This document shows positions 18,115-58,155 of a stretch of 64,000 nt of DNA, piece after piece. Under the pieces are notes generated by a model. That model was not told the DNA's origin and searched no databases. It saw only the letters and a list, made by a program, of their open reading frames with translations. This DNA is from Qipengyuania sp. (GTDB taxonomy: Bacteria > Pseudomonadota > Alphaproteobacteria > Sphingomonadales > Sphingomonadaceae), in NCBI GenBank assembly GCA_019745075.1, contig JAIETR010000008.1:2063-66062 (forward strand), in the 5' to 3' direction. The first letter of the stretch is position 1. Each line of letters starts with the position of its first letter. The position numbers were made by a program, and so were the translations under genes.

Positions 18115-18345
18115 ATGACCGAGACACCGACCAGGCAGCTGCTCCACCTCGTGATGGGGGGCCGCGTGAAGAACCCGCAGACGCTCGAGTTCGAGAACCT
18201 CGCGGAGGTCGATTTCGTGGGCGTCTATCCCAACTATGCCGGCGCGCTCGAGGCCTGGCGCGGCGCGGCGCAGCGCACCGTGGACGACGCCGAGATGAAA
18301 TATGTCATCGTCCACCTTCACCGCCTGCTCGAACCCGAGGGGTAA
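18115..18345 (+). CDS. DUF4170-like small protein
   Basis: 76-aa in-frame ORF: LLHLVMGGRVKNPQTLEFENLAEVDFVGVYPNYAGALEAWRGAAQRTVDDAEMKYVIVHLHRL. Confidence 0.55.
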   Translation: MTETPTRQLLHLVMGGRVKNPQTLEFENLAEVDFVGVYPNYAGALEAWRGAAQRTVDDAEMKYVIVHLHRLLEPEG

Positions 18346-18356
18346 GGAGCGCGAGC

Positions 18357-18437
18357 GTGTCTCGACTGCGCTCGACACGAACGGAGCTCGTTTGATCCTA
18401 CCCCAATATCCGTTCGTATCGAGCGCAGTCGAGATAC
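18357..18437. repeat. Palindromic repeat copy A1 (arms GTGTCTCGACTGCGCTCGACACGAACGG / CCGTTCGTATCGAGCGCAGTCGAGATAC)
   Basis: 28-nt inverted arms around a 25-nt loop; intergenic, between convergent genes. Confidence 0.85.
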
Positions 18438-23481: not shown

Positions 23482-24738
23482 TCACCCCAACATCCCCACG
23501 AACTTCTCGAACAGATAAAAACTGTCCTGTGGGCCGGGGCTCGCCTCCGGATGGTATTGGACGCCGAACGCCCGTTTCCCCGTGATCGAAATCCCGCAAT
23601 TGGTGCCGTCGAAGAGCGAGACGTGGGTTTCCTCGACGCCGGGCGGCAGGGTCGCGTTATCGACCGCGAAGCCGTGGTTCATGCTGGTGATCTCGACCGC
23701 GCCGTCCGCCAGGCGCTTCACCGGATGATTGGCGCCGCGGTGGCCCTGGTGCATCTTGGCGGTCCTGGCCCCGGCGGCGAGGCCGAGCATCTGGTGGCCG
23801 AGGCAGATGCCGAACAGCGGCAAATCCGCCTCCAGCAGGCCCTTGATCACCGGCACCGCGTATGTCCCCGTCGCCGCCGGATCCCCGGGGCCGTTGGAGA
23901 GAAAAACGCCATCGGGATTCAGCGCCATGATCTCCGCCAGCGAGGTGCGCGCGGGCACCACCGTCACCTTCGCGCCGGCCCGAGCGAGGTCGCGGAAGAT
24001 GTTGTCCTTCGAGCCATAGTCGATGGCGACGACGTGGGGCTTCTTCTCCCCCTCCCCTTCAGGGGAGGGGGTCGGGGGGAGGGGGCTGTCGTCGGAGCCG
24101 CGACTTGCAACAGGCCCCACCCCAACCCCTCCCCTGAAGGGGAGGGGCTTTTCGGCATACCCCTTGCCGAGCGTCCAGGCGCCGCCGCCCCACGCCTCCT
24201 GTTCCTGGCGCGTCACCTTAGGCACGAGGTCGAGCCCCTCCAGCCCGCTCCATTCCCGCGCCTGCCGCCGCAACGCCTTGAGGTCGAACTCGCCCCTGGG
24301 GTCGTGCGCGATCGCCACATTGGGCGCGCCCTCGAGTCGGACCTTGCGGGTCAAGGCGCGGGTGTCGACCCCCGCCAGTCCGATCTTGCCCTGGCCCTTG
24401 AGCCAGTCGCCGAACTCTTGCCTTGCGCGGAAGCTCGAATGGGGCGTGATCGTCTCGCGCACCACGCAGCCGACCGCGCCCAGCCCCTTGCTTTCGACGT
24501 CCTCGGGGTTCGCCCCGACATTGCCGATATGCGGGAAGGTGAAGCAGACCACCTGCGCATCGTAGGAGGGATCGGTCATCACCTCCTGGTAGCCGGTCAT
24601 GGCGGTGTTGAAGCACAGCTCGCCCACCGCCTGCCCCTCGTGCCCGAAGCCCTGGCCCCAGATCACCGTGCCGTCCGCGAACACGAGCACGCCCGTGGCT
24701 CCGGGAGGTTGCGCGTGCGGAGAGGCGGATCGGGCCAT
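23482..24738 (-). CDS. carA: Carbamoyl-phosphate synthase small (glutaminase) subunit, carrying a 33-codon repeat-derived insertion in the interdomain linker
   Basis: GVLVFADGTVIWGQGFG..., GATase motif PLFGICLGHQML, HRGANHP. At 418 aa it is longer than typical CarA. Confidence 0.95.
   Translation of the reverse strand: MARSASPHAQPPGATGVLVFADGTVIWGQGFGHEGQAVGELCFNTAMTGYQEVMTDPSYDAQVVCFTFPHIGNVGANPEDVESKGLGAVGCVVRETITPHSSFRARQEFGDWLKGQGKIGLAGVDTRALTRKVRLEGAPNVAIAHDPRGEFDLKALRRQAREWSGLEGLDLVPKVTRQEQEAWGGGAWTLGKGYAEKPLPFRGGVGVGPVASRGSDDSPLPPTPSPEGEGEKKPHVVAIDYGSKDNIFRDLARAGAKVTVVPARTSLAEIMALNPDGVFLSNGPGDPAATGTYAVPVIKGLLEADLPLFGICLGHQMLGLAAGARTAKMHQGHRGANHPVKRLADGAVEITSMNHGFAVDNATLPPGVEETHVSLFDGTNCGISITGKRAFGVQYHPEASPGPQDSFYLFEKFVGMLG
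24049..24147. repeat. 99-bp palindromic element inside carA: two 22-nt hairpins (CCCCTCCCC-TTCA-GGGGAGGGG and its exact reverse complement) flanking a GC-rich spacer
   Basis: Read directly; encodes PLPFRGGVGVGPVASRGSDDSPLPPTPSPEGEGE in the carA frame. Confidence 0.8.
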
Positions 24739-25333: not shown

Positions 25334-26022
25334 TGCGGCTTTCGGTGCTTCCCGCGCTGGCGCTGTTCGCCGGGTGCTCGGCCGAGCCCGCGCCGGAGGC
25401 CGCCCCCTCGCCGACACCCACGCTCGCCGCGCCGCGTACGCTGGTCGCCGCCGATTTCGACCCAGCGATGCTCGGCGCGCATGTCGCCGGCATGGAACCG
25501 ACCAATGTCGAGGTGGGCGACGGAGTGGCGCGGGTAACCGCCTTCGTGGCCTGTCCCAAGGGAACGATCGCCTGCGATCCCGCTTCGCTGCCCGAGGGGG
25601 CCGTGTTGACCTATGTGCTGACCATCACGCCCCGGGCGCATGAGCAGCCCCGGCCCGTTCCGTCGCCGGTTGCCTCCCCAGGCGCGGGCGAATCCCCGCT
25701 CGCGCCGGTCGAGGCGCCCGCCGAACTGGTCGGGATGACCCGCGCCGCGCCCGGCTTCGAAGGCGCGGTCGGCTTCTCCCGCGCCGAAGCGGCGGCGGCG
25801 CTGGGGGCGGAGGACGCGCTGACGGTCATGCTCGACGAGAATCGGCTGATCTGGCGGGTGACCCAGGGCAGCGGCTGGCGGGCGGGCCAACCGATCACGC
25901 TGTGGTGGCAATCGACGCGCGCGCCGGGGAAACCGGTGGCGGCGTACCGCATCGAATACGCGGGCAAACACGCCGAGGTCACGGCGCCCTTCCCGGCGGA
26001 ACAGGTGGAAAACTCGCCCTGA
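25333..26022 (+). CDS. Putative lipoprotein
   Basis: MRLSVLPALALFAGCS lipobox; in-frame end of ORF 23551..26022; ATG overlaps the preceding stop. Confidence 0.55.
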   Translation: MRLSVLPALALFAGCSAEPAPEAAPSPTPTLAAPRTLVAADFDPAMLGAHVAGMEPTNVEVGDGVARVTAFVACPKGTIACDPASLPEGAVLTYVLTITPRAHEQPRPVPSPVASPGAGESPLAPVEAPAELVGMTRAAPGFEGAVGFSRAEAAAALGAEDALTVMLDENRLIWRVTQGSGWRAGQPITLWWQSTRAPGKPVAAYRIEYAGKHAEVTAPFPAEQVENSP

Positions 26023-26024
26023 CG

Positions 26025-26102
26025 GCCTCTCGACTTCGCTCGAGGCGAACGGCAGAGTAGGTTCCTTCCAACTTCCGTTCGTGTCGAGCGAAGTCGAGAC
26101 AC
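26025..26102. repeat. Palindromic repeat copy A2 (hairpin immediately upstream of GIY-YIG gene 1)
   Basis: Arms GCCTCTCGACTTCGCTCGAGGCGAACGG / CCGTTCGTGTCGAGCGAAGTCGAGACAC. Confidence 0.85.
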
Positions 26103-26119
26103 CTGACCCGGACTGTCCT

Positions 26120-26527
26120 ATGCCCATCTGGTGCTACATCCTGAAATGCGCCGACGGGAAATATTACACCGGGCACACCGATGACCTCGAGCGGCGGTAT
26201 GCCGAACATGTTCACGGCGGATACTGCGGGTTCACGACCAGGCGAAGGCCCGTAACCTTGATCTGGGCGCAGGAGTTCGCGACCCGTTACGAAGCGCTGT
26301 CGAGCGAGCTGGTGGTGAAGAAATGGTCGCGGGCGAAAAAGGAAGCGCTGGCGGCACAGGACTGGGCAAGTTTATCGCACTTCGCCAAGCCGCCGCGCGA
26401 GCGTGTCTCGACTTCGCTCGACACGAACGGGGAGGTTAGTGCTGGATCTCAGACCTCTTCGTGTCCAGAACAACCTCCGTTCGTGTCGAGCGAAGTCGAG
26501 ACACAAAGAGCAGAACCGCCATGCTGA
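26120..26527 (+). CDS. Small GIY-YIG (URI/YhbQ-like) nuclease; the ORF continues through downstream repeat A3 and ends overlapping the dnaG start
   Basis: MPIWCYILKCADGKYYTGHTDDLERRYAEHVHG...KKWSRAKKEAL; the GIY/YYTG...R...E pattern matches the UPF0213/YhbQ family. Confidence 0.8.
   Translation: MPIWCYILKCADGKYYTGHTDDLERRYAEHVHGGYCGFTTRRRPVTLIWAQEFATRYEALSSELVVKKWSRAKKEALAAQDWASLSHFAKPPRERVSTSLDTNGEVSAGSQTSSCPEQPPFVSSEVETQRAEPPC
26403..26504. repeat. Palindromic repeat copy A3 (hairpin at the 3' end of GIY-YIG gene 1)
   Basis: Arms GTGTCTCGACTTCGCTCGACACGAACGG / CCGTTCGTGTCGAGCGAAGTCGAGACAC are exact reverse complements; the stem is extended by GGAGGTT/AACCTCC. Confidence 0.9.
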
Positions 26528-28414: not shown

Positions 28415-30463
28415 ATGGCCACCACCAGCAAGCCCACCGACGATGGCGACGCGCCGCTGATCGAGCTCAACGACGCCGATATCAAGAAGCTGATCGCGAA
28501 GGCCAAGAAGAAGGGCTACGTCACCTATGACGAGCTCAATTCGGCGCTGCCGCAGGGCGAGATGAGCTCCGATCAGATCGAGGACATCCAGTCCGCGCTC
28601 AGCGACATGGGCGTCCAGATCGTCGAGAGCGACGAGGAAGGCGAGGCCGAGGGCGACCGCGACGACGAGGTCGAGGAGGTCTCCGCCGGCGACGATGGCG
28701 AGGACGAGGATGCCGGGGGCTCCGAACGCAAGCCGACCACCAATGTCACCCGCAAGCTCGCCGCGGGCGAGCGCACCGACGATCCGGTGCGCATGTACCT
28801 GCGCGAGATGGGCGCGGTCGAACTGCTGAGCCGCGAGGGCGAGATCGCGATCGCCAAGCGCATCGAGGCCGGGCGCGACATGATGATCATGGGGCTGTGC
28901 GAAAGCCCGATCACCTTCCACGCCATCATCCAGTGGTCCGACGCGCTCAACGCCGGCGAGATGCAGTTGCGCGAAATCCTCGACCTCGATGCGATGCTTT
29001 CCAAGGAGCCGCCCGCCGACAAGATGGCGGACGACGCCGAGGAAGAGGACGACGACGGCGAGATCTCCGAAGCCACCGCCGGCCCGACCATCCGCGAAGA
29101 GGAAGAGGTCGAGGACGAGCCCGCGCAGCGCGACGAGGACGACGAGGATGGCGAGGCTCCGCCGCCGCGGCGCGAGGAGGACGAGGAAGAAGACAACACC
29201 ATGTCGCTCGCCCAGATGGAGGCGGCATTGAAGCCCGAGGCGCTCGAGCGCTTCGCGCGCATCGCCGACTATTTCGGCAAGTTCGAAAAGCAGCAGGCCG
29301 AGCGGGTCGAGGTGCTCGGCCGCGGCGAGATTTACCCTCCCGCCAAGGAGAGGAAGTACGAAACGCTGCGCGAACAGCTCACCGCCGAGGTCGAGAGCGT
29401 GCAGTTCCACGCGACCAAGATCGAGTTCCTGGTCGACAACCTCTATGCCTTCAACCGCCGGCTGACCGCGCTGGGCGGGCAGATGCTGCGCCTGGCCGAG
29501 CGCCACAAGGTCAAGCGCGGCGAATTCCTCGACGCCTATATCGGCAACGAGCTCGACGAGGGCTGGCTGACCGATCGCGCCGGCAAGGACAAGAAATGGG
29601 CCGCCTTCGCCGACAAGGAGGGCGATGCGATCGAGCGCATCCGCCTCGAGATCAGCGACATCGCCAGCCAGACCGGCATGTCGCTCCCCGAGTTCCGCCG
29701 CATCGTCAACATGGTCCAGAAGGGCGAGCGCGAGGCGCGCATCGCCAAGAAGGAAATGGTCGAGGCGAACCTGCGCCTGGTGATTTCGATCGCCAAGAAA
29801 TACACCAACCGGGGCCTGCAATTCCTCGACCTGATCCAGGAGGGCAACATCGGGCTGATGAAGGCGGTCGACAAGTTCGAATACCGCCGCGGCTACAAGT
29901 TCAGCACCTATGCCACCTGGTGGATTCGCCAGGCGATCACCCGCTCGATCGCCGATCAGGCGCGCACCATCCGCATCCCGGTCCACATGATCGAGACGAT
30001 CAACAAGCTGGTCCGCACCAGCCGCCAGTTCCTCCACGAGGAAGGCCGCGAGCCCACCCCCGAGGAGATGGCGCAGCGCCTGTCGATGCCGCTCGAGAAA
30101 GTCCGCAAGGTGATGAAGATCGCCAAGGAGCCGATCAGCCTCGAAACCCCGATCGGCGACGAGGAGGACAGCCACCTCGGCGATTTCATCGAGGACAAGA
30201 ACGCGGTCATCCCCGTCGACGCCGCGATCCAGGCGAACCTCAAGGAAACCGTGACCCGCGTCCTCGCCAGCCTGACCCCGCGCGAGGAGCGCGTGCTGCG
30301 CATGCGCTTCGGCATCGGCATGAACACCGACCACACTTTGGAAGAGGTCGGCCAGCAGTTCAGCGTGACGCGCGAGCGGATCAGGCAAATCGAGGCAAAA
30401 GCGCTGCGCAAGCTGAAGCATCCGTCGCGGTCGCGGAAGATGCGCAGTTTCCTGGATCAGTAG
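28415..30463 (+). CDS. rpoD: RNA polymerase primary sigma factor (sigma-70)
   Basis: Acidic non-conserved region, then regions 2-4 ([32 protein letters not shown]...; [23 protein letters not shown]). Confidence 0.95.
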
Positions 30464-30495
30464 GGGCGCTGGAAATTATCCTCGCGCTGCGCTAG

Positions 30496-31069: not shown

Positions 31070-31281
31070 CCCCGCGCGAGGGACGCGTGCTGCGCAAGCG
31101 CCCTTCGGCGCTGCTCGGGACAGGCTTCGGCATCGGCATGAACACCGACCACACGCTCGAGAAAGTGGGCCAGCAGTTCAGCGTGACGCGCGAGCGGATC
31201 AGGCAAATCGAGGCAAAAGCGCTGCGCAAGCTGAAGCACCCGAGCCGGTCGCGGAAGATGCGCAGTTTCCTGGATCAGTAG
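31065..31281 (+). pseudogene. Detached, diverged copy of the rpoD 3' end (last about 64 codons plus an 8-codon in-frame insertion)
   Basis: Aligns to 30271-30463. Most substitutions are synonymous (e.g. TCG to AGC Ser, ACT to ACG, TTG to CTC). Same stop context CTGGATCAGTAG. Confidence 0.85.
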
Positions 31282-31368
31282 GACTCCTGCGAGTCGATTA
31301 CCATAGACATTGCCGGCGCGCTTTCCGACGTACTTGACCTGGAGAACAATGGGGGTACAACCCTAGGC

Positions 31369-32834: not shown

Positions 32835-32922
32835 GACCATGCCGCCATCGAGCTCAAGGCGGACGTGCGCGAATGGCTGCTCGAGCCGGTCGCGGAAGAT
32901 GCGGAGCTTTCCGGACCAATAG
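32835..32922 (+). pseudogene. Chimeric scar: rpiB 5' fragment (codons about 8-25) joined directly to a third copy of the last 12 codons of rpoD
   Basis: 32835-32886 matches 34409-34460 at 49/52 nt. 32887-32922 matches 30428-30463 at 31/36 nt, with 5 of 6 changed codons synonymous in the rpoD frame. Confidence 0.75.
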
Positions 32923-34386: not shown

Positions 34387-34851
34387 ATGCGCATCGCCAT
34401 CGCCTCCGACCATGCCGCCATCGACCTCAAGGCGGACCTGCGCGAGTGGCTGCTCGAGCAGGGGCACGAGGTCGCCGACCTCGGGCCAGGGACCGCCGAA
34501 AGCGTCGATTATCCCGACTTCGGCTACGATCTCGCCGCGGTGGTGGCCGAAGGCACCGCCCGGTTCGGCGTGGCGCTGTGCGGCAGCGGCATTGGTATCT
34601 CGATCGCGGTCAACCGCAATCCGCTGGTGCGCTGCGCGCGGGTCAGCGAACCGCTCTCGGCCGCGCTCGCCCGCGAGCATAACGACGCCAATGTCATCGC
34701 CCTGGGCGCGCGGCTGACCGGGCCCGACATGGCCAAGGCCTGCCTCACCGCCTTCTTGGGCACCGAATTCTCCGGCGGGCGCCACCAGCGCCGCGTCGAC
34801 AAGCTCGGCACCCCGCCCCACCCCATCGACAGGATCGAACCGCACCAATGA
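34387..34851 (+). CDS. rpiB: Ribose-5-phosphate isomerase B
   Basis: [18 protein letters not shown]...[17 protein letters not shown]...[12 protein letters not shown]-like core; stop overlaps the glyA ATG. Confidence 0.9.
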
Positions 34852-36299
34852 GCGCAGCCGACATATCGACGCCTTCCAAGTCCTTCGAGACGGCTCGGAC
34901 TTCGTCCTCGCCTCCTCAGGACGAACGGAGAGGGGGACAGATGTCTTCCAATTCCGTTCGTGCTGAGGAGGGGCCGAAGCCGAAGGCAGAGGACCTGTCT
35001 CGAAGCACATTGCGCGACGCTCCCGACCGCTTCTGGACCGACACGCTCGAGGCTGCCGACCCCGAGGTCTTCGCCGCCGTGCGCGGCGAGCTGAAGCGCC
35101 AGCAGGACAAGATCGAGCTGATCGCGAGCGAGAACATCGCCAGCCGCGCGGTGCTCGAGGCGACCGGGAGCGTGTTCACCAACAAATATGCCGAGGGCTA
35201 TCCGGGCAAGCGCTATTATGGCGGCTGCGACTATGCCGATGTGGTCGAGACGCTGGCGATCGAGCGCGCGAAACAGCTGTTCGGCTGCCGCTTCGCCAAT
35301 GTCCAGCCCAACAGCGGCAGCCAGATGAACCAGGCGGTGTTCCTGGCGCTGCTCCAGCCCGGCGACACCTTCATGGGGCTCGACCTCAACTCGGGCGGCC
35401 ACCTCACCCACGGCAGCCCCGTCAACATGAGCGGCAAGTGGTTCAATCCGGTCAGCTACGGCGTGCGCAAGGACAACGAGCTGATCGACATGGACGAGGT
35501 GATGGCGGTCGCGAAGGCGAACAGGCCCAGGCTGATCATCGCCGGCGGCACAGCCTATTCGCGGATCTGGAACTGGGCGGCGTTCCGCCACGTCGCGGAC
35601 GAGGTCGGCGCCACGCTGATGGTGGATATGAGCCATATCGCCGGGCTGGTGGCGGGCGGCGTGCATTCCTCGCCCTTCCCGCACGCGCATATCGTCACCA
35701 CCACCACGCACAAGAGCCTGCGGGGCCCGCGCTCGGGCGTGATCCTGTGGGACGAGGAGGAGCTGACCAAGCCGCTCAACATGGCGGTGTTCCCCGGGCT
35801 CCAGGGCGGGCCGCTGATGCATGTGATCGCCGCCAAGGCGGTCGCCTTCCGCGAGGCGCTGCGGCCCGAGTTCAAGCTCTACGCCCGCCGCGTGGTCGAG
35901 AACGCGCGCGCGCTCGCCGCCAGTCTCGAGGAGAATGGGCTGCGGGTGGTCTCGGGCGGGACCGACAACCATCTGATGCTGGTCGATCTTTCCGCGAAGA
36001 ATGTCACCGGCAAGGATGCCGAGAAGGGCCTCGACCGGGCCTGGCTCACCGCCAACAAGAACGGCATCCCCTACGACACCAGGAGTCCCTTCGTGACCAG
36101 CGGCATCCGCCTCGGCACGCCGGCGGGCACCACCCGCGGCTTCGGCGCGGGCGAGTTTCGCGCGATCGGCAAGCTAATCTCCGAGGTCGTCGAGGGCCTT
36201 GCCAAGAACGGCCCAGAGGGCGATGGTCAGATCGAGGAAAGCGTGCGCACCCGGGTGGCCGAGCTGTGCGCGCGCTTCCCGGTCTATCCGGGCCTGTAA
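34848..36299 (+). CDS. glyA: Serine hydroxymethyltransferase with a repeat-derived N-terminal insertion of about 46 codons
   Basis: [37 protein letters not shown]...[15 protein letters not shown] 34848 overlaps the rpiB stop (ATGA). Alternative internal ATG at 34941. Confidence 0.95.
34880..35008. repeat. Palindromic repeat copy B1 (long-arm variant) embedded in the 5' end of glyA
   Basis: Arms GTCCTTCGAGACGG...CCTCAGGACGAACGG / CCGTTCGTGCTGAGGAGG...CTGTCTCGAAGCAC. Confidence 0.85.
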
Positions 36300-36566: not shown

Positions 36567-37025
36567 ATGCGCTGTCCGTTCTGCGCCCATGACGACACCC
36601 AGGTAAAGGACAGCCGCCCCGCCGAGGACAATGCGGCGATCCGTCGCCGCCGCCAGTGCGGCCAATGCGGCGCGCGCTTCACCAGCTTCGAGCGCGTCCA
36701 GTTGCGCGAGGTCACGGTCGCGAAATCGGACGGCAAGCGCGAGCCCTTCGACCGCGGCAAGCTCGAGCGCTCGCTCACGCTCGCCTGCCGCAAGCGCGGC
36801 GTCGCGCCCGAGCGGATCGACCAGCTCGTCAGCGGCATCCAGCGCCAGGTCGAGACCGCGGGCGACAGCGAGGTTTCCTCCGAGCGGATCGGCGAACTGG
36901 TGATGGAGGGCCTGCGCCAGATCGATCCCGTCGCCTACATCCGCTTCGCCAGCGTCTACCGCGATTTCTCCGAGCCGCGCGATTTCGAGGCATTCGCGAG
37001 CTCGGTGCAGGACGCGAAGGAATAG
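36567..37025 (+). CDS. nrdR: Transcriptional repressor NrdR
   Basis: [17 protein letters not shown]...[17 protein letters not shown] zinc ribbon plus ATP-cone. Confidence 0.95.
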
Positions 37026-37030
37026 TTGAA

Positions 37031-37107
37031 GCGGTCTCGATACGCTCGGGACGAACGGTTGGGTAAGATGCAACCTCATCCCGTTCGTCCCGAGCTTGTC
37101 GAGGGAC
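37031..37107. repeat. Palindromic repeat copy A4 (hairpin upstream of GIY-YIG gene 2)
   Basis: Arms GCGGTCTCGATACGCTCGGGACGAACGG / CCGTTCGTCCCGAGCTTGTCGAGGGAC. Confidence 0.8.
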
Positions 37108-37142
37108 TATGCCGAGCGAAGCCGAGGCCCTAAGCTCGGCCA

Positions 37143-38285
37143 ATGTCTTTTTTGACCTACATCCTGCGCTGCGCCGACGGCACCTATTACGTCGGTCACA
37201 CCGACAACATCGACAAGCGCTGGGCACAACATCAATTGGGCGAGCTTGGCGGCTACATCTCCGAGCGCCGGCCGCTCGAGTTCATGTGGGCGGAGGAAAT
37301 GCCTACGCGCGAGGAAGCCCTCGCCGCCGGACTGCGTATCAAGAAATGGTCGCGGGCGAAGAAGGAAGCGCTGATCGTGCAGGACTGGGATCGGCTTTCA
37401 CACTTCTCCATCCCGCCGAAAGAGCGCGGATCGGTCTCGGCTCCGCTCGACCGGGCCCCTCGACTTGGCTCGGGACGAACGGAGGAGGGGGATGAATTTC
37501 CTCCCGTTCGTTCTCAGCTTGTCGAAGGACAGGTTCCAGCAAAGCCGAGAACCCAAAAACCCGTCATCGTCCTTGTCCGTCCGCAACTCGGCGAGAACAT
37601 CGGCAAGGCGGCTCGCGCCATGCTGAATTTCGGGCTGACCGAGTTACGCCTGGTCGAGCCGCGCGACGGCTGGCCCAATCCCGCCGCCGGCCCCGCCGCC
37701 TCGGGCGCGGATGTGGTGCTGGAGCGGGCACGGGTGTTCGCCACCACCGCCGATGCGGTGGCCGACTGCGCACACATCTATGCCACCACGGTCCGCAAGC
37801 GCGGGGTGACCAAGCCGGTGCAGAGGCCGGAAGATGCTGCACGGAACATCCACCGGCAACCCGGACGAAGCGCGATACTGTTCGGGCCGGAGCGTTCGGG
37901 GCTGGAAACCGCCGACGTCGCCCTCGCCAGGACTATCATCACCGTGCCGATCAATCCCGCATTCGGCTCGCTCAATCTTGCGCAGGCGGTGATCCTGGTG
38001 GCCTACGAATGGTCCAAACTCGCGGAGCTCGCGCAGCCTACAGAGGAGGAATTGTTGCCTCCTGCGCCGCAGGGCGAGCTCGAGGGATTGATCGCTCACT
38101 TCACCCGGCTGCTTACCCCTAAAGGCTATTTCCTACCGCTCAGCCGTGCGGAAGCGACCCAGACAAACCTGCGCACGATCCTGACGAAACCGGGCTGGAA
38201 CCATCTTGAGGTACGCACCCTGCGCGGCGTCCTCAGCGCGCTCGAGCGAACGCCCTTGCCGCCGGTGAGCCAGGAGCGATCTTGA
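37143..38285 (+). CDS. Single 380-aa ORF: N-terminal GIY-YIG (YhbQ-like) nuclease, a repeat-encoded linker, and a C-terminal TrmJ/SpoU-family RNA 2'-O-methyltransferase
   Basis: N-terminus: MSFLTYILRCADGTYYVGHTDNIDKRWAQH...KKWSRAKKEAL. C-terminus: PVIVLVRPQLGENIGKAARAMLNFGL...ILFGPERSGL...SLNLAQAVILVAYE. No in-frame ATG/GTG/TTG between 37380 and the methyltransferase core. Confidence 0.75.
   Translation: MSFLTYILRCADGTYYVGHTDNIDKRWAQHQLGELGGYISERRPLEFMWAEEMPTREEALAAGLRIKKWSRAKKEALIVQDWDRLSHFSIPPKERGSVSAPLDRAPRLGSGRTEEGDEFPPVRSQLVEGQVPAKPRTQKPVIVLVRPQLGENIGKAARAMLNFGLTELRLVEPRDGWPNPAAGPAASGADVVLERARVFATTADAVADCAHIYATTVRKRGVTKPVQRPEDAARNIHRQPGRSAILFGPERSGLETADVALARTIITVPINPAFGSLNLAQAVILVAYEWSKLAELAQPTEEELLPPAPQGELEGLIAHFTRLLTPKGYFLPLSRAEATQTNLRTILTKPGWNHLEVRTLRGVLSALERTPLPPVSQERS
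37431..37530. repeat. Palindromic repeat copy A5 (3' of the GIY-YIG domain, inside the fusion ORF; has an extra partial arm)
   Basis: ...CCCCTCGACTTGGCTCGGGACGAACGG / CCCGTTCGTTCTCAGCTTGTCGAAGGAC. Confidence 0.8.
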
Positions 38286-47570: not shown

Positions 47571-47671
47571 CGAAAATCCGTGAATTGGGAGCGAACGGGA
47601 ATGACCGCGCGCTCTAGCATGGCCCGCTGTCGGCGCAATGAATAGCTTGGCGCGATGGCTGTGATCCCACC

Positions 47672-47757
47672 CCGTTCGTGTCGAGCGAAGTCGAGACACG
47701 CGCACATTCCGCACCGTATCTCGACTACGCGCTACGCGCTCCGCTCGATATGAACGG
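47672..47757. repeat. Repeat copy A6: the same arms in tail-to-tail order (CCGTTCG...GAGACAC, 16-nt spacer, GTATCTCGAC...GAACGG)
   Basis: The first arm is identical to 26075-26102; the second arm has an internal expansion (CTACGCG duplicated). Confidence 0.8.
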
Positions 47758-47787
47758 GCATGTTCGGCCAACAACGGCAGCGTTAGG

Positions 47788-51611: not shown

Positions 51612-51631
51612 TCAGCGGTCTCCTTTTGTGC

Positions 51632-51657
51632 GCTCGCAAAGGCGCAAAGGCGCAAGG
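51632..51657. repeat. Inverted repeat (left) flanking the GxxExxY gene: GCTCGCAAAGGCGCAAAGGCGCAAGG
   Basis: 25/26 nt reverse-complement match to 52050-52075. Confidence 0.85.
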
Positions 51658-52049: not shown

Positions 52050-52075
52050 CCTTGCGCCTTAGCGCCTTTGCGAGC
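52050..52075. repeat. Inverted repeat (right) flanking the GxxExxY gene: CCTTGCGCCTTAGCGCCTTTGCGAGC
   Basis: Begins on the nucleotide after the start codon (CAT 52047-52049). Confidence 0.85.
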
Positions 52076-52108
52076 CCATCAAACTGCTCTGCGTCTCTGC
52101 GCGCAAAA

Positions 52109-55387: not shown

Positions 55388-55416
55388 GGGCCTTCCAAAT
55401 GCGAACCTATTCCTCT

Positions 55417-55528
55417 CCGTTCGTGCCGAGGAGCCGAAGACGTAGTCCGAGGCGTCTCGAAGCACCGCGCGAGTCCTTCGAGACGGCGCTTCAGCCGTTC
55501 GGCTTCAGCGCCTCCTCAGGACGAACGG
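55417..55528. repeat. Repeat copy B2 (long-arm variant, tail-to-tail order with a 7-nt spacer)
   Basis: CCGTTCGTGCCGAGGAGCCGAAG...GTCTCGAAGCAC / GTCCTTCGAGACGG...CCTCAGGACGAACGG; between convergent genes. Confidence 0.8.
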
Positions 55529-55580
55529 GCGCTGGTTGGAAGTCGATGCCTCACTCCGATACGCAGCCCAAGAAGATGGC

Positions 55581-58036: not shown

Positions 58037-58143
58037 CCCGTTCGTATCGAGCGGAGAACGAAGTTCTTGGTCGAGATACGCAAGCGCCGTGCCAGCGTGT
58101 CTCGACGGGCGCGAGCCTGCGGCTCGTTGCTCGACACGAACGG
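58037..58143. repeat. Repeat copy A7 (tail-to-tail order, 17-nt spacer, both arms internally expanded)
   Basis: CCCGTTCGTATCGAGCGG...GGTCGAGATAC / GTGTCTCGACGGGCG...GCTCGACACGAACGGG. Confidence 0.75.
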
Positions 58144-58155
58144 GATTGAACGACT

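Follow-up and report, generated by a model that had tools for sequence, protein, structure and literature searches.

Introduction

Canonical TrmJ, the tRNA Cm32/Um32 2'-O-methyltransferase (PDB 5gra, 4cnd, 4xbo), is a protein of 230-270 aa that is translated from its own start codon. GIY-YIG domains occur in bacteria as stand-alone proteins of the UPF0213 or Slx1-like group, such as BH0048 (PDB 1zg2), EF2693 (PDB 1ywl) and Escherichia coli YhbQ. We know of no function that has been assigned to the bacterial UPF0213/Slx1-like GIY-YIG proteins, and a literature search for a function of UPF0213/YhbQ found nothing. The seg and mob genes of phage T4 are examples of free-standing homing endonuclease genes.

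The fusion of a GIY-YIG domain to a COG0565 methyltransferase has been published for Erythrobacter litoralis ELI_05635, as an isolated case whose relevance was not known (Dunin-Horkawicz et al., 2006, PMC1564403; Tkaczuk et al., 2007, PMC1829167). A possible role of the prokaryotic Slx1-like proteins in RNA metabolism was also suggested in 2006 (PMC1564403). In REP/REPIN-RAYT systems, short palindromic repeats are dispersed as inverted doublets, and a single nuclease-type gene lies between two inverted repeats whose subtype is matched to the gene (Nunvar, 2010; Bertels and Rainey, 2011, PMC3116915). A search of the literature for links between GIY-YIG and REP, REPIN, RAYT or MITE returned nothing relevant.

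Here we describe a GIY-YIG-methyltransferase fusion in a 64 kb stretch of DNA, the whole of which is referred to as the window. Like ELI_05635, it joins an N-terminal Slx1-like GIY-YIG domain and a C-terminal COG0565 (TrmJ/LasT) domain in one ORF and comes from the same bacterial order; its Erythrobacter homologues are 68% identical. To that description we add a distribution that is widespread but patchy, a fixed position at the nrdR|trmJ junction, an in-frame linker encoded by repeat DNA, and the loss of a conserved Glu in the window copy. The C-terminal 244 aa correspond to TrmJ, but the window protein differs from the canonical enzyme in its 136 extra N-terminal residues and in having no TrmJ start of its own. 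The GIY-YIG domain resembles the UPF0213 stand-alones over its full length and differs from them in being fused, in carrying Gly at the Glu position and in belonging to a subfamily that is bracketed by inverted REP-like arms. The features listed above for REP/REPIN-RAYT systems are all found here, except that the flanked gene encodes a GIY-YIG nuclease instead of an HUH/Y1 (IS200/IS605-like) transposase, and that mobilisation would here be putative. Free-standing homing endonuclease genes share with this locus a small nuclease gene between conserved genes, presence or absence at one exact site, and degenerate copies. They differ from it in that the present genes have a chromosomal bacterial context, inverted-repeat brackets and fusion or translational coupling to the downstream gene, and cleavage of the empty site would here be a prediction only. 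The fusion family has been known since 2006, while its origin from a repeat-bracketed cassette appears to be undescribed; what is potentially new is the association of GIY-YIG genes with REP-like arms.

Results

The sequence-only reading of this DNA had proposed that a GIY-YIG domain continues in frame through a repeat, A5, into a methyltransferase core. This is borne out: positions 37143..38285 (+ strand, stop included) form one uninterrupted ORF of 380 aa with an ATG start, comprising a GIY-YIG domain, a linker encoded by the repeat and a TrmJ-type methyltransferase (window sequence, ORF list, Pfam, structure matches and AlphaFold model). The upstream gene of the junction is nrdR (36567..37025, + strand), which was identified from the ORF list and from Pfam Zn_ribbon_NrdR and ATP-cone matches on the identical gene in locus L002. 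The same reading had seen no in-frame ATG, GTG or TTG between about 37380 and the core, and we confirm that after the GTG at 37377 (codon 79) the next such codon is the ATG at 37620 (codon 160), whose Met lies downstream of the invariant block LVRPQLGENIGKAARA. This gap supports its conclusion that the methyltransferase can be made only as a fusion. Its alternative, initiation at a GTG inside the nuclease domain, finds no support: the AAGGAAG ahead of GTG 37377 is merely the codons of KKEAL, the Val is not conserved and the product would still be a fusion. In-frame ATC codons occur at 37410 and 37566. A frameshift or sequencing error in 37380-37560 had been a further worry, which is answered by the identical 380-aa protein found on nine independently assembled contigs (separate ENA and Logan assemblies); an error of sequencing or assembly is thereby ruled out as the source of the open frame.

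The methyltransferase part spans 37551..38282 (+ strand; PF00588, TIGR00050 and TrmJ models, 5gra_A), and unfused orthologues start 2-20 residues ahead of position 37551. Pfam SpoU_methylase (PF00588) matches aa 141-288 over profile positions 3-142 of 142 (E 3.3e-22; 79.5 bits against a cut-off of 29.7). The best NCBIfam model, TIGR00050, reaches 155.4 bits, below its cut-off of 167.15, over positions 6-230 of 233. Query residues 139-369 match residues 5-235 of the solved TrmJ 5gra_A (E 1e-107), an alignment that takes in the C-terminal 244 aa from end to end. AlphaFold confidently models both the SPOUT core and the helical extension at the C-terminus, with helices at 310-369. The methyltransferase part is a complete TrmJ-type SPOUT domain, and it would be expected to have TrmJ activity, namely 2'-O-methylation of tRNA at position 32. 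Other TrmJ homologues are fused to assorted neighbours (DUF559, CM_2 and the NrdR ATP-cone), which shows that the TrmJ gene tolerates accidental fusions.

The N-terminal UPF0213/Slx1-like GIY-YIG domain comprises aa 1-95 (37143..37427, + strand; Pfam, PDB 1zg2/1ywl and AlphaFold, pLDDT of about 97). Pfam GIY-YIG (PF01541) matches aa 4-74 (E 5.5e-15; 55.9 bits against a cut-off of 22.6). As a single sequence, the N-terminal part matches 1zg2 (E 1.8e-10) and 1ywl (E 2.8e-08), and a profile of window-type GIY domains matches both over the whole domain (E 7.5e-20 and 5.9e-17, respectively), with conserved Tyr, Tyr, Arg, His and Glu in common. The window protein has four of the hallmarks, each also found in at least 118 of 121 homologues: Y6 (the Tyr of GIY), Y16 (the Tyr of YIG), R26 about 10 residues further on, and the conserved His, H30. 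The fifth is not: codon 63 (37329..37331, + strand) is GGA, so that the window copy has Gly63 in place of the conserved, presumed catalytic, metal-binding Glu of the GIY-YIG superfamily. BH0048, EF2693 and the paralogue at 26120 all carry Glu in this column, as do 118 of 121 fused homologues, and a catalytic function of the residue is established from I-TevI, UvrC and Slx1. Because of the change from Glu to Gly, the window nuclease is probably inactive, and the domain would then be a passenger retained as the bearer of the TrmJ start codon. All nuclease hallmark residues are intact in 118 of the 121 fused homologues, and in most lineages the domain would therefore be kept for its own activity and not merely as a start-codon donor. 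The two confident domains are joined by a linker of about 40 aa, whose coding DNA is repeat A5 throughout; it is predicted to be disordered, with pLDDT below 50 for aa 98-134 in the AlphaFold model.

Nine hairpin loci, consisting of dispersed palindromic repeats in inverted doublets, were found in the window, where 20 copies of the core 8-mer CCGTTCGT compare with an expectation of 2.55. The bracketing of the GIY-YIG domain by repeats A4 and A5, as proposed earlier, stands, with the refinement that each "hairpin" is composed of two arms. The cassette proper extends from the inner R-arm of A4 (37081..37107, CCGTTCGTCCCGAGCTTGTCGAGGGAC, from motif matches), which is its left inverted arm, to the L-arm of A5 (37433..37482, ending in GGGACGAACGG and translated in frame as VSAPLDRAPRLGSGRTE), which is its right inverted arm. 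Two further repeat units lie outside it: an outer L-arm in A4 and an outer R-arm in A5. The former (37033-37058, ending in ACGAACGG) and its loop (37059-37080) occupy 37033..37080, as delimited by sequence, motif matches and hairpin fold. The latter (37504-37530) is preceded by the A5 loop (37483-37503) and followed by a tail module (37531-37553); together they cover 37483..37553, are translated as EGDEFPPVRSQLVEGQVPAKPRT and stand where the lost native trmJ start would be. The in-frame translation of A5, ...SAPLDRAPRLGSGRTEEGDEFPPVRSQLVEGQVPAKPRT..., is as it had been given, and the cassette contains no stop codon ahead of the L-arm. Between the left arm and the GIY ATG lies a leader (37108..37142, + strand, tgccgagcgaagccgagg...), which by eye is common to the cassette at the junction of locus L029 and similar to the tail after A5; a small hairpin (37121-37140) directly precedes the ATG.

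A4 (37033-37107) folds into a hairpin of -47.3 kcal/mol (z -7.3), and the fold of A5 (37433-37530, with its tail to about 37553) has -64.7 kcal/mol (z -3.6). A4 was considered as an intrinsic terminator of nrdR and rejected, as no T-run follows it. A terminator scan returned only the small hairpins at 37121-37140 and 37481-37504, at a rate about as in shuffled sequences. No Rfam family reached its gathering score in the region, which gave three chance-level matches only.

A paralogous stand-alone cassette is located at 26075..26527 (+ strand), with an R-arm (26075-26102), a GIY-YIG ORF (26120-26527) and an L-arm (26403-26430). Its GIY-YIG copy (26120-26404) is 56% identical to the fused copy, and the motif KKWSRAKKEAL is present in both, as had been noticed from the letters. 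The paralogue ORF reads through its L-arm, and its stop overlaps the dnaG ATG at 26521; 19 of 57 stand-alone GIY loci are located upstream of dnaG. Across 80 unrelated loci, flanking of the GIY gene by matched inverted arms was more than 25-fold above background. An R-type arm was found 45-125 nt ahead of the GIY start in 46 of 78 unrelated loci, and an L motif within 150 nt past the end of the GIY domain in 42 of 75 (about 0.02 expected in each case). Arms are 86% identical within a pair compared with 50% between loci, a difference reached by none of 5000 permutations. By this comparison of loci, the GIY-YIG cassette is a general unit. Its matched arms resemble the terminal inverted repeats of IS and MITE elements. 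It differs from these in that no recognised transposase domain was found in the cassette with Pfam and no target-site duplication was seen by eye beside the cassette or beside three solo R-spacer-L units.

Among 80 species representatives of the Sphingomonadales, the nrdR|trmJ junction is empty in 68 and holds a GIY-YIG gene in 12, of which 11 are fused in frame. The filled junctions are scattered across at least six clades, and in about 450 kb of flanking sequence this junction is the only place at which the 12 species have a GIY-YIG gene. The comparison with trmJ orthologues that had been proposed shows an ATG 1-14 codons ahead of the core at empty sites, abutting or overlapping the nrdR stop or separated from it by a few bases. 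In L001, for example, a 250-aa methyltransferase of 80% identity starts at an ATG that overlaps the nrdR stop. Fused homologues in the Sphingomonadales number more than 120. The best 120 database matches, from Erythrobacter, Croceibacterium, Novosphingobium and Sphingobium, are all fusions with both Pfam domains (58-89% identity, 96-99% query coverage); together with the 11 fused junctions, they contradict the idea of an event private to, or recent in, this genome.

We compared 31 GIY-methyltransferase loci, of which 30 are in frame without a stop, even though their linkers (105-216 nt) have 23 distinct lengths; selection therefore acts on the fused frame. At the sole out-of-frame locus, L029, a TTG start overlaps the GIY stop. 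The linker changes fast: its nucleotide identity is 62% between two species that have about 90% identity in the GIY gene and flanks. In about half of the 31 loci, the 20 codons ahead of the core contain no start codon. Three fused loci (L067, L074 and L054) keep the native ATG directly after the L-arm, and start loss therefore appears to be a later step in the window lineage. The earlier alternative that the cassette destroyed and replaced the native trmJ start thus holds for its position, which is that of the native start, and fails for the mechanism, as the start was not lost as a direct result of insertion.

The direction of change at the junction would be gain. Losses of the cassette are suggested as well, by a possible degenerate L-arm remnant at the empty L081 junction and by a weaker remnant in L060. 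In a neighbour-joining (NJ) tree of GIY domains, trmJ-linked copies are interleaved with dnaG-linked and other copies, which speaks against a single origin of the fusion and is suggestive of polyphyly; the NJ trees were built on short sequences, here of only 89 aa. A comparison of Aurantiacibacter species, which is an unresolved trichotomy, gave no sign that the cassette had recently moved between them by horizontal transfer: GIY gene and flanks are alike in being 90% identical. Arm density in the flanks (0.19/kb at loci of fused species, 0.11/kb at empty ones) was uninformative.

Discussion

We consider it probable (about 0.7) that this fusion arose by insertion of a GIY cassette at the nrdR|trmJ junction, followed by read-through into trmJ. 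A GIY-YIG cassette with one of a pair of matched inverted arms on either side (CCGTTCGT...GTCGAGGGAC and its complement) would have entered the junction, and because it has no stop of its own ahead of the L-arm, translation would have passed through the arm into trmJ. In the window lineage, a further repeat unit would then have taken the place of the native trmJ start, so that TrmJ synthesis became tied to the GIY ATG at 37143. Selection for TrmJ expression would hold the quickly changing, repeat-derived linker in frame, and the N-terminal domain, with its Glu to Gly change, would be an inactive passenger kept for its start codon.

We think it unlikely that the protein is a true bifunctional enzyme, with a GIY-YIG domain that cuts or binds the same RNA (or DNA) as TrmJ acts on and a fusion that was selected for this cooperation. 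Such a role, a possibility raised in the literature (PMC1564403), would fit the nuclease hallmarks conserved in 118 of 121 fused proteins and the retention of the frame where the native ATG is still present. It would also fit the fusion of at least two distinct GIY-YIG types to the same methyltransferase and the existence of double-GIY versions of 460-500 aa. However, TrmJ is unfused in 68 of the 80 sampled species, whose locus lacks a GIY gene; most members of this GIY family stand alone, as do the copies upstream of dnaG; and GIY and TrmJ are separate in L029, with overlapping stop and start. The linker is repeat-derived, unconserved and predicted to be disordered, the window copy has lost its key Glu, and TrmJ is also fused to unrelated neighbours.

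The chance that two proteins are made from the one frame, with free TrmJ arising from a non-canonical start in or after the linker or by linker proteolysis, is slight in our judgement. A disordered linker would be accessible to proteases, the native ATG after the L-arm survives in some relatives, and the two in-frame ATC codons could potentially serve as starts; yet ATG, GTG and TTG are all absent between codons 79 and 160, independent initiation gives no reason for 30 of 31 loci being in frame, and cleavage would still need synthesis as a fusion. It is scarcely credible that the open frame is artefactual and that a frameshift or stop separating two genes was missed: although a repeat-rich, high-GC linker is an error-prone type of sequence, no support for an error was found, and the nine contigs, the more than 120 homologous fusions and the in-frame state of nearly all independent loci (30/31) stand against it.

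Beyond this locus, we raise a tentative wider idea, which we hold as somewhat less probable than its opposite. The UPF0213-type GIY-YIG genes of this clade and the CCGTTCGT...GTCGAG... palindromic arms may form one RAYT/REPIN-like system, in which the nuclease recognises or cuts the arms and drives their spread or upkeep, with gene-less doublets of the same subtype dispersed. In such a system, cassettes would lodge directly upstream of conserved genes (trmJ, dnaG), and their retention would be secured by becoming the translational entry point, either through fusion or through stop/start overlap. The tight, orientation-specific and subtype-matched bracketing of UPF0213/Slx1-like GIY-YIG genes by palindromes provides a testable hypothesis for the target of these proteins.

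For annotation, our findings mean that the gene is a real fusion that should be neither split nor "corrected", and that what it encodes is an ordinary TrmJ apart from 136 added N-terminal residues, which derive from the cassette. The linker is a case of REP-like repeat DNA that is translated as a disordered segment and turns over quickly, with the frame nonetheless held. The locus would be a clean natural example of how a selfish-looking cassette becomes hard to lose once a housekeeping gene depends on it for a start codon.

The fusion ORF

The open reading frame (ORF) at 37143-38285 on the forward strand runs uninterrupted from an ATG for 380 aa and joins, through a linker, a GIY-YIG domain (PF01541, aa 4-74, E 5.5e-15) to a SpoU_methylase domain (PF00588, aa 141-288, E 3.3e-22; both Pfam), which bears out the one-frame fusion to a TrmJ-like methyltransferase proposed by the sequence-only reading. 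The best NCBIfam model, TrmJ/YjtD (TIGR00050), scored 155.4 bits, slightly below its cut-off of 167.15. The solved TrmJ structure 5gra_A aligns to the C-terminal 231 residues (E 1e-107), and the UPF0213 structures 1zg2 and 1ywl match the N-terminal domain. Judged by these sequence matches, the protein combines a UPF0213/Slx1-like domain at its N-terminus with an ordinary TrmJ at its C-terminus. The paralogous GIY-YIG copy recognized by the same reading (26120-26404) is 56% identical to the fused domain, and both carry KKWSRAKKEAL.

Also as that reading had it, no start codon lies between about 37380 and the methyltransferase core: after GTG 37377 (codon 79), the next in-frame ATG, GTG or TTG is ATG 37620 (codon 160), which falls behind the invariant LVRPQLGENIGKAARA block. 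From the end of the GIY-YIG domain (PPKER) to the core (KPVIVLV), the ORF consists entirely of repeat DNA, read in frame. In an AlphaFold model built with 56 homologues, aa 1-95 have a pLDDT of about 97 and the methyltransferase also scores high, whereas aa 98-134 stay below 50; the low values suggest that the repeat encodes a disordered linker.

An assembly or sequencing artefact is refuted, since the identical 380-aa protein was called on nine contigs from separate ENA and Logan assemblies; its neighbours on them are unchanged (rpiB, glyA, nrdR, fusion, CM_2, rpsD). Both Pfam domains occur in all of the best 120 database matches (96-99% query coverage, 58-89% identity), among whose named sources are Erythrobacter, Croceibacterium, Novosphingobium and Sphingobium. 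The window protein belongs to the published fusion family typified by ELI_05635 of Erythrobacter litoralis, which was assigned to COG0565 (TrmJ/LasT; Tkaczuk et al., 2007, PMC1829167). The architecture was already on record (Dunin-Horkawicz et al., 2006, PMC1564403), and both papers regarded it as a one-off whose relevance was not known.

Conservation of the reading frame

We compared 31 loci in which a GIY-YIG domain lies ahead of the methyltransferase, taken from the window itself, from 12 species genomes and from 18 of 23 metagenome contigs with this arrangement. Between the KKEAL motif and the core, 23 distinct spacings occur (105-216 nt), and 30 of the 31 loci keep a spacing that is divisible by three and free of stops. 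Chance alone would not be expected to yield this many independent changes in length with the frame kept throughout. In about half of the loci, the window among them, the last 20 codons ahead of the core contain no ATG, GTG or TTG. Given a frame kept through many length changes, the fused frame is evidently under selection, with the methyltransferase apparently translated from the upstream ORF. Separate proteins arising through non-canonical initiation or cleavage find little support. At the sole out-of-frame locus, L029, a TTG three codons before the core overlaps the GIY-YIG stop (TTGA), an arrangement that is, from its sequence, translational coupling instead of fusion. Other loci (L067, L074 and L054) still have an ATG, 9-14 codons ahead of the core; in L067 it directly abuts a repeat arm (L-arm).

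Repeat arms and the GIY-YIG cassette

The palindromic repeats A4 and A5, which flank the fused GIY-YIG domain, are strong hairpins by folding energy (-47.3 kcal/mol, z -7.3, and -64.7 kcal/mol, z -3.6), as the sequence-only reading had supposed, and the window contains 20 copies of their core 8-mer CCGTTCGT, where 2.55 would be expected. Each hairpin comprises two arms: an R-arm, CCGTTCGT(s)(y)CGAGC..GTCGAG(r)(s)AC, and an L-arm, its reverse complement, ending in ...ACGAACGG. Upstream of the ORF, an outer L-arm (37033-37058) and loop precede an R-arm (37081-37107) and a 35-nt leader; directly 3' of the GIY-YIG part, an L-arm (37433-37482) and loop precede an outer R-arm (37504-37530), a tail module to about 37553 and the methyltransferase core. 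This order places the GIY-YIG gene between an R-arm and an L-arm with the CCGTTCG ends outward, and the outer arms are extra repeat units.

Gene-less units in the window are of the L-loop-R (18341-18437; 34880-35005) or R-spacer-L type (47666-47758; 55412-55530; 58037-58145), the latter of which look like cassettes minus the gene; some arms of these doublets have expanded internal stem-loops. The second GIY-YIG copy forms a stand-alone cassette (26017-26527) with matched arms, whose ORF (26120-26527) reads through the L-arm and whose stop overlaps the dnaG ATG at 26521. Its arm subtype, GTGTCGAGCGAAGTCGAGACAC, recurs in solo units at 18355, 47672 and 58038, and the subtype of the trmJ-linked copy, TCCCGAGC..GTCGAGGGAC, is found in the window only at its own flanks.

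Scanning metagenomes with a GIY-domain alignment yielded 80 loci, 23 of them trmJ fusions. The exact R-arm motif lay within 150 nt upstream of the GIY-YIG start in 46 of 78 loci, and the exact L-arm motif within 150 nt past the domain end in 42 of 75, against respective background rates in these contigs of 0.023 and 0.019 per 150 nt. Over the 22 nt beyond the search motif, the two arms of one gene match at a mean of 86% (median 91%), compared with 50% for arms from different loci; the observed match within genes was reached in 0 of 5000 permutations. The GIY-YIG ORFs typically read through the L-arm and stop soon after (tails such as VSTSLDTNG, PSTSLGTNG and PSTSSGRTG). Of the 57 stand-alone copies, 19 lie immediately upstream of dnaG, which makes this position a second conserved site for the family; in about 10 of the 19 the predicted dnaG start overlaps the GIY-YIG stop.

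Other repeats were also seen in the window. The unit at 34880-35005, with its tail, lies in frame at the 5' end of a glyA ORF that opens at ATG 34848, overlapping the rpiB stop (ATGA); it would encode an N-terminal extension of about 54 aa on SHMT, and gene callers place the start at ATG 34941, within the hairpin loop. Here too, repeat DNA would be translated at the 5' end of a gene. A palindrome unrelated to the CCGTTCGT arms, CCCCTCCCCTTCAGGGGAGGGG... (24049-24147), consists of two 31-nt arms that are 90% complementary and separated by 37 nt. An inverted repeat of 34 nt, rich in GCAAAGGCGCAA (51624-51657 and 52050-52083; 88% complementary, 392 nt between), may bound a small element. A 159-nt direct repeat (30306-30464 and 31124-31282; 93% identical, 818 nt apart) and a repeat of 55 nt (32835-32889 and 34408-34462; 93%) were also present; the 34408 copy, in the N-terminal coding part of rpiB, suggests paralogous genes nearby.

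Empty and filled nrdR-trmJ junctions

Relatives of the methyltransferase part (50% clustering) are nearly all 230-280 aa long and start 2-20 residues before the point aligning with query residue 136-139. The unfused 250-aa protein P0122 (MPARADAPVIVLVRPQ...), for example, is 80% identical to this part; its ATG overlaps the nrdR end, and neither a GIY-YIG gene nor repeats were found at that junction.

A survey of one genome per species, queried with the methyltransferase domain alone and hence unbiased with respect to fusion, gave 80 Sphingomonadales loci. Sixty-eight were empty; in 67 of them the methyltransferase comes directly after nrdR and opens at a start codon of its own, which lies 1-14 codons ahead of the core and in many cases overlaps the nrdR stop, and in one (L059) nrdR was not found upstream. 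In the other 12, a GIY-YIG gene sits exactly in the nrdR-trmJ junction, 11 times in frame. No further GIY-YIG homologue was found in about 450 kb of flanks. The sequence-only reading, that a cassette had replaced the native start of a housekeeping gene or created a fusion, was thus right in part: 67 of 80 species have a methyltransferase start of their own at the point that the cassette occupies here, and TrmJ can apparently be made here only as a fusion, but the fusion is widespread and already published, not unique to this genome.

On a neighbour-joining methyltransferase tree, the filled loci fall into at least six clades, often beside empty sisters. Possible degenerate L-arm remnants at two empty junctions (L081, just before the ATG, and more weakly L060) suggest that losses probably happen too. 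Among three Aurantiacibacter species that are mutually about 90% identical, A. xanthus and A. flavus are filled and A. suaedae is empty with the usual ATG/TGA overlap. The GIY-YIG genes of the first two are 90% identical (linker only 62%), matching the overall identity and therefore consistent with vertical inheritance since arrival.

Origin and function of the fusion

We propose that a GIY-YIG cassette with an arm at each end was inserted at the nrdR-trmJ junction, where the genes are tightly packed. Lacking a stop before its L-arm, it would have allowed TrmJ expression only by in-frame read-through or stop/start overlap, and both arrangements are observed among the loci. In this lineage, a further repeat unit would then have replaced the native trmJ start, leaving TrmJ dependent on ATG 37143, and the nuclease would later have lost its key Glu.

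In GIY-YIG enzymes, a conserved Glu binds the catalytic metal. Across 121 fused proteins the hallmark residues are nearly invariant (Y6 118, Y16 120, R26 120, H30 120, E63 118), and the E63 equivalent is also present in BH0048 and EF2693. This conservation shows an apparent retention of the fused domain for its own activity in most lineages. The window protein has Gly at position 63 (GGA, 37329-37331), as does its closest relative, P0001 (P0056 has Ala), so its GIY-YIG domain is probably inactive.

Retained catalytic residues and the repeated fusion of two GIY-YIG types would also suit a true bifunctional GIY-YIG/TrmJ enzyme. We consider this unlikely, as 68 of 80 species are unfused, most of the GIY-YIG family stands alone, the linker is disordered and unconserved, and TrmJ homologues are also fused to a C-terminal DUF559 or chorismate mutase or an N-terminal NrdR ATP-cone (P0165, P0178, P0139, P0201). 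Some of these other fusions may be read-through or frameshift products; DUF559 is a PD-(D/E)XK nuclease domain, and a TrmJ-DUF559 fusion was noted in 2007 for Bradyrhizobium.

In L039, L040, L050, P0010, P0012, P0016, P0035 and P0049, the methyltransferase is joined to the second GIY-YIG type, a divergent one (LALAQHRDGTRDEYTAKR...), and arm motifs were not found in these junctions. Versions of 460-500 aa carry two tandem domains ahead of TrmJ, in the order type 1, repeat-derived linker, type 2. The presence of both types at one site implies at least two separate captures there.

The arrangement of GIY-YIG gene and arms resembles a REP/RAYT locus in its putative working but differs in having no HUH transposase, the defining feature. 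In being patchily distributed and site-specific, the cassette also resembles free-standing homing endonuclease genes; inspection by eye showed no target-site duplication next to it, and no transposase was found. The fusion architecture itself is already known. In the searchable literature we did not find its origin as an nrdR-trmJ junction cassette, a repeat-encoded linker held in frame, or dispersed REP-like arms that bracket this GIY-YIG family in a fixed orientation and with matching subtypes. It is this association between GIY-YIG genes and repeat arms that is the lead worth following.
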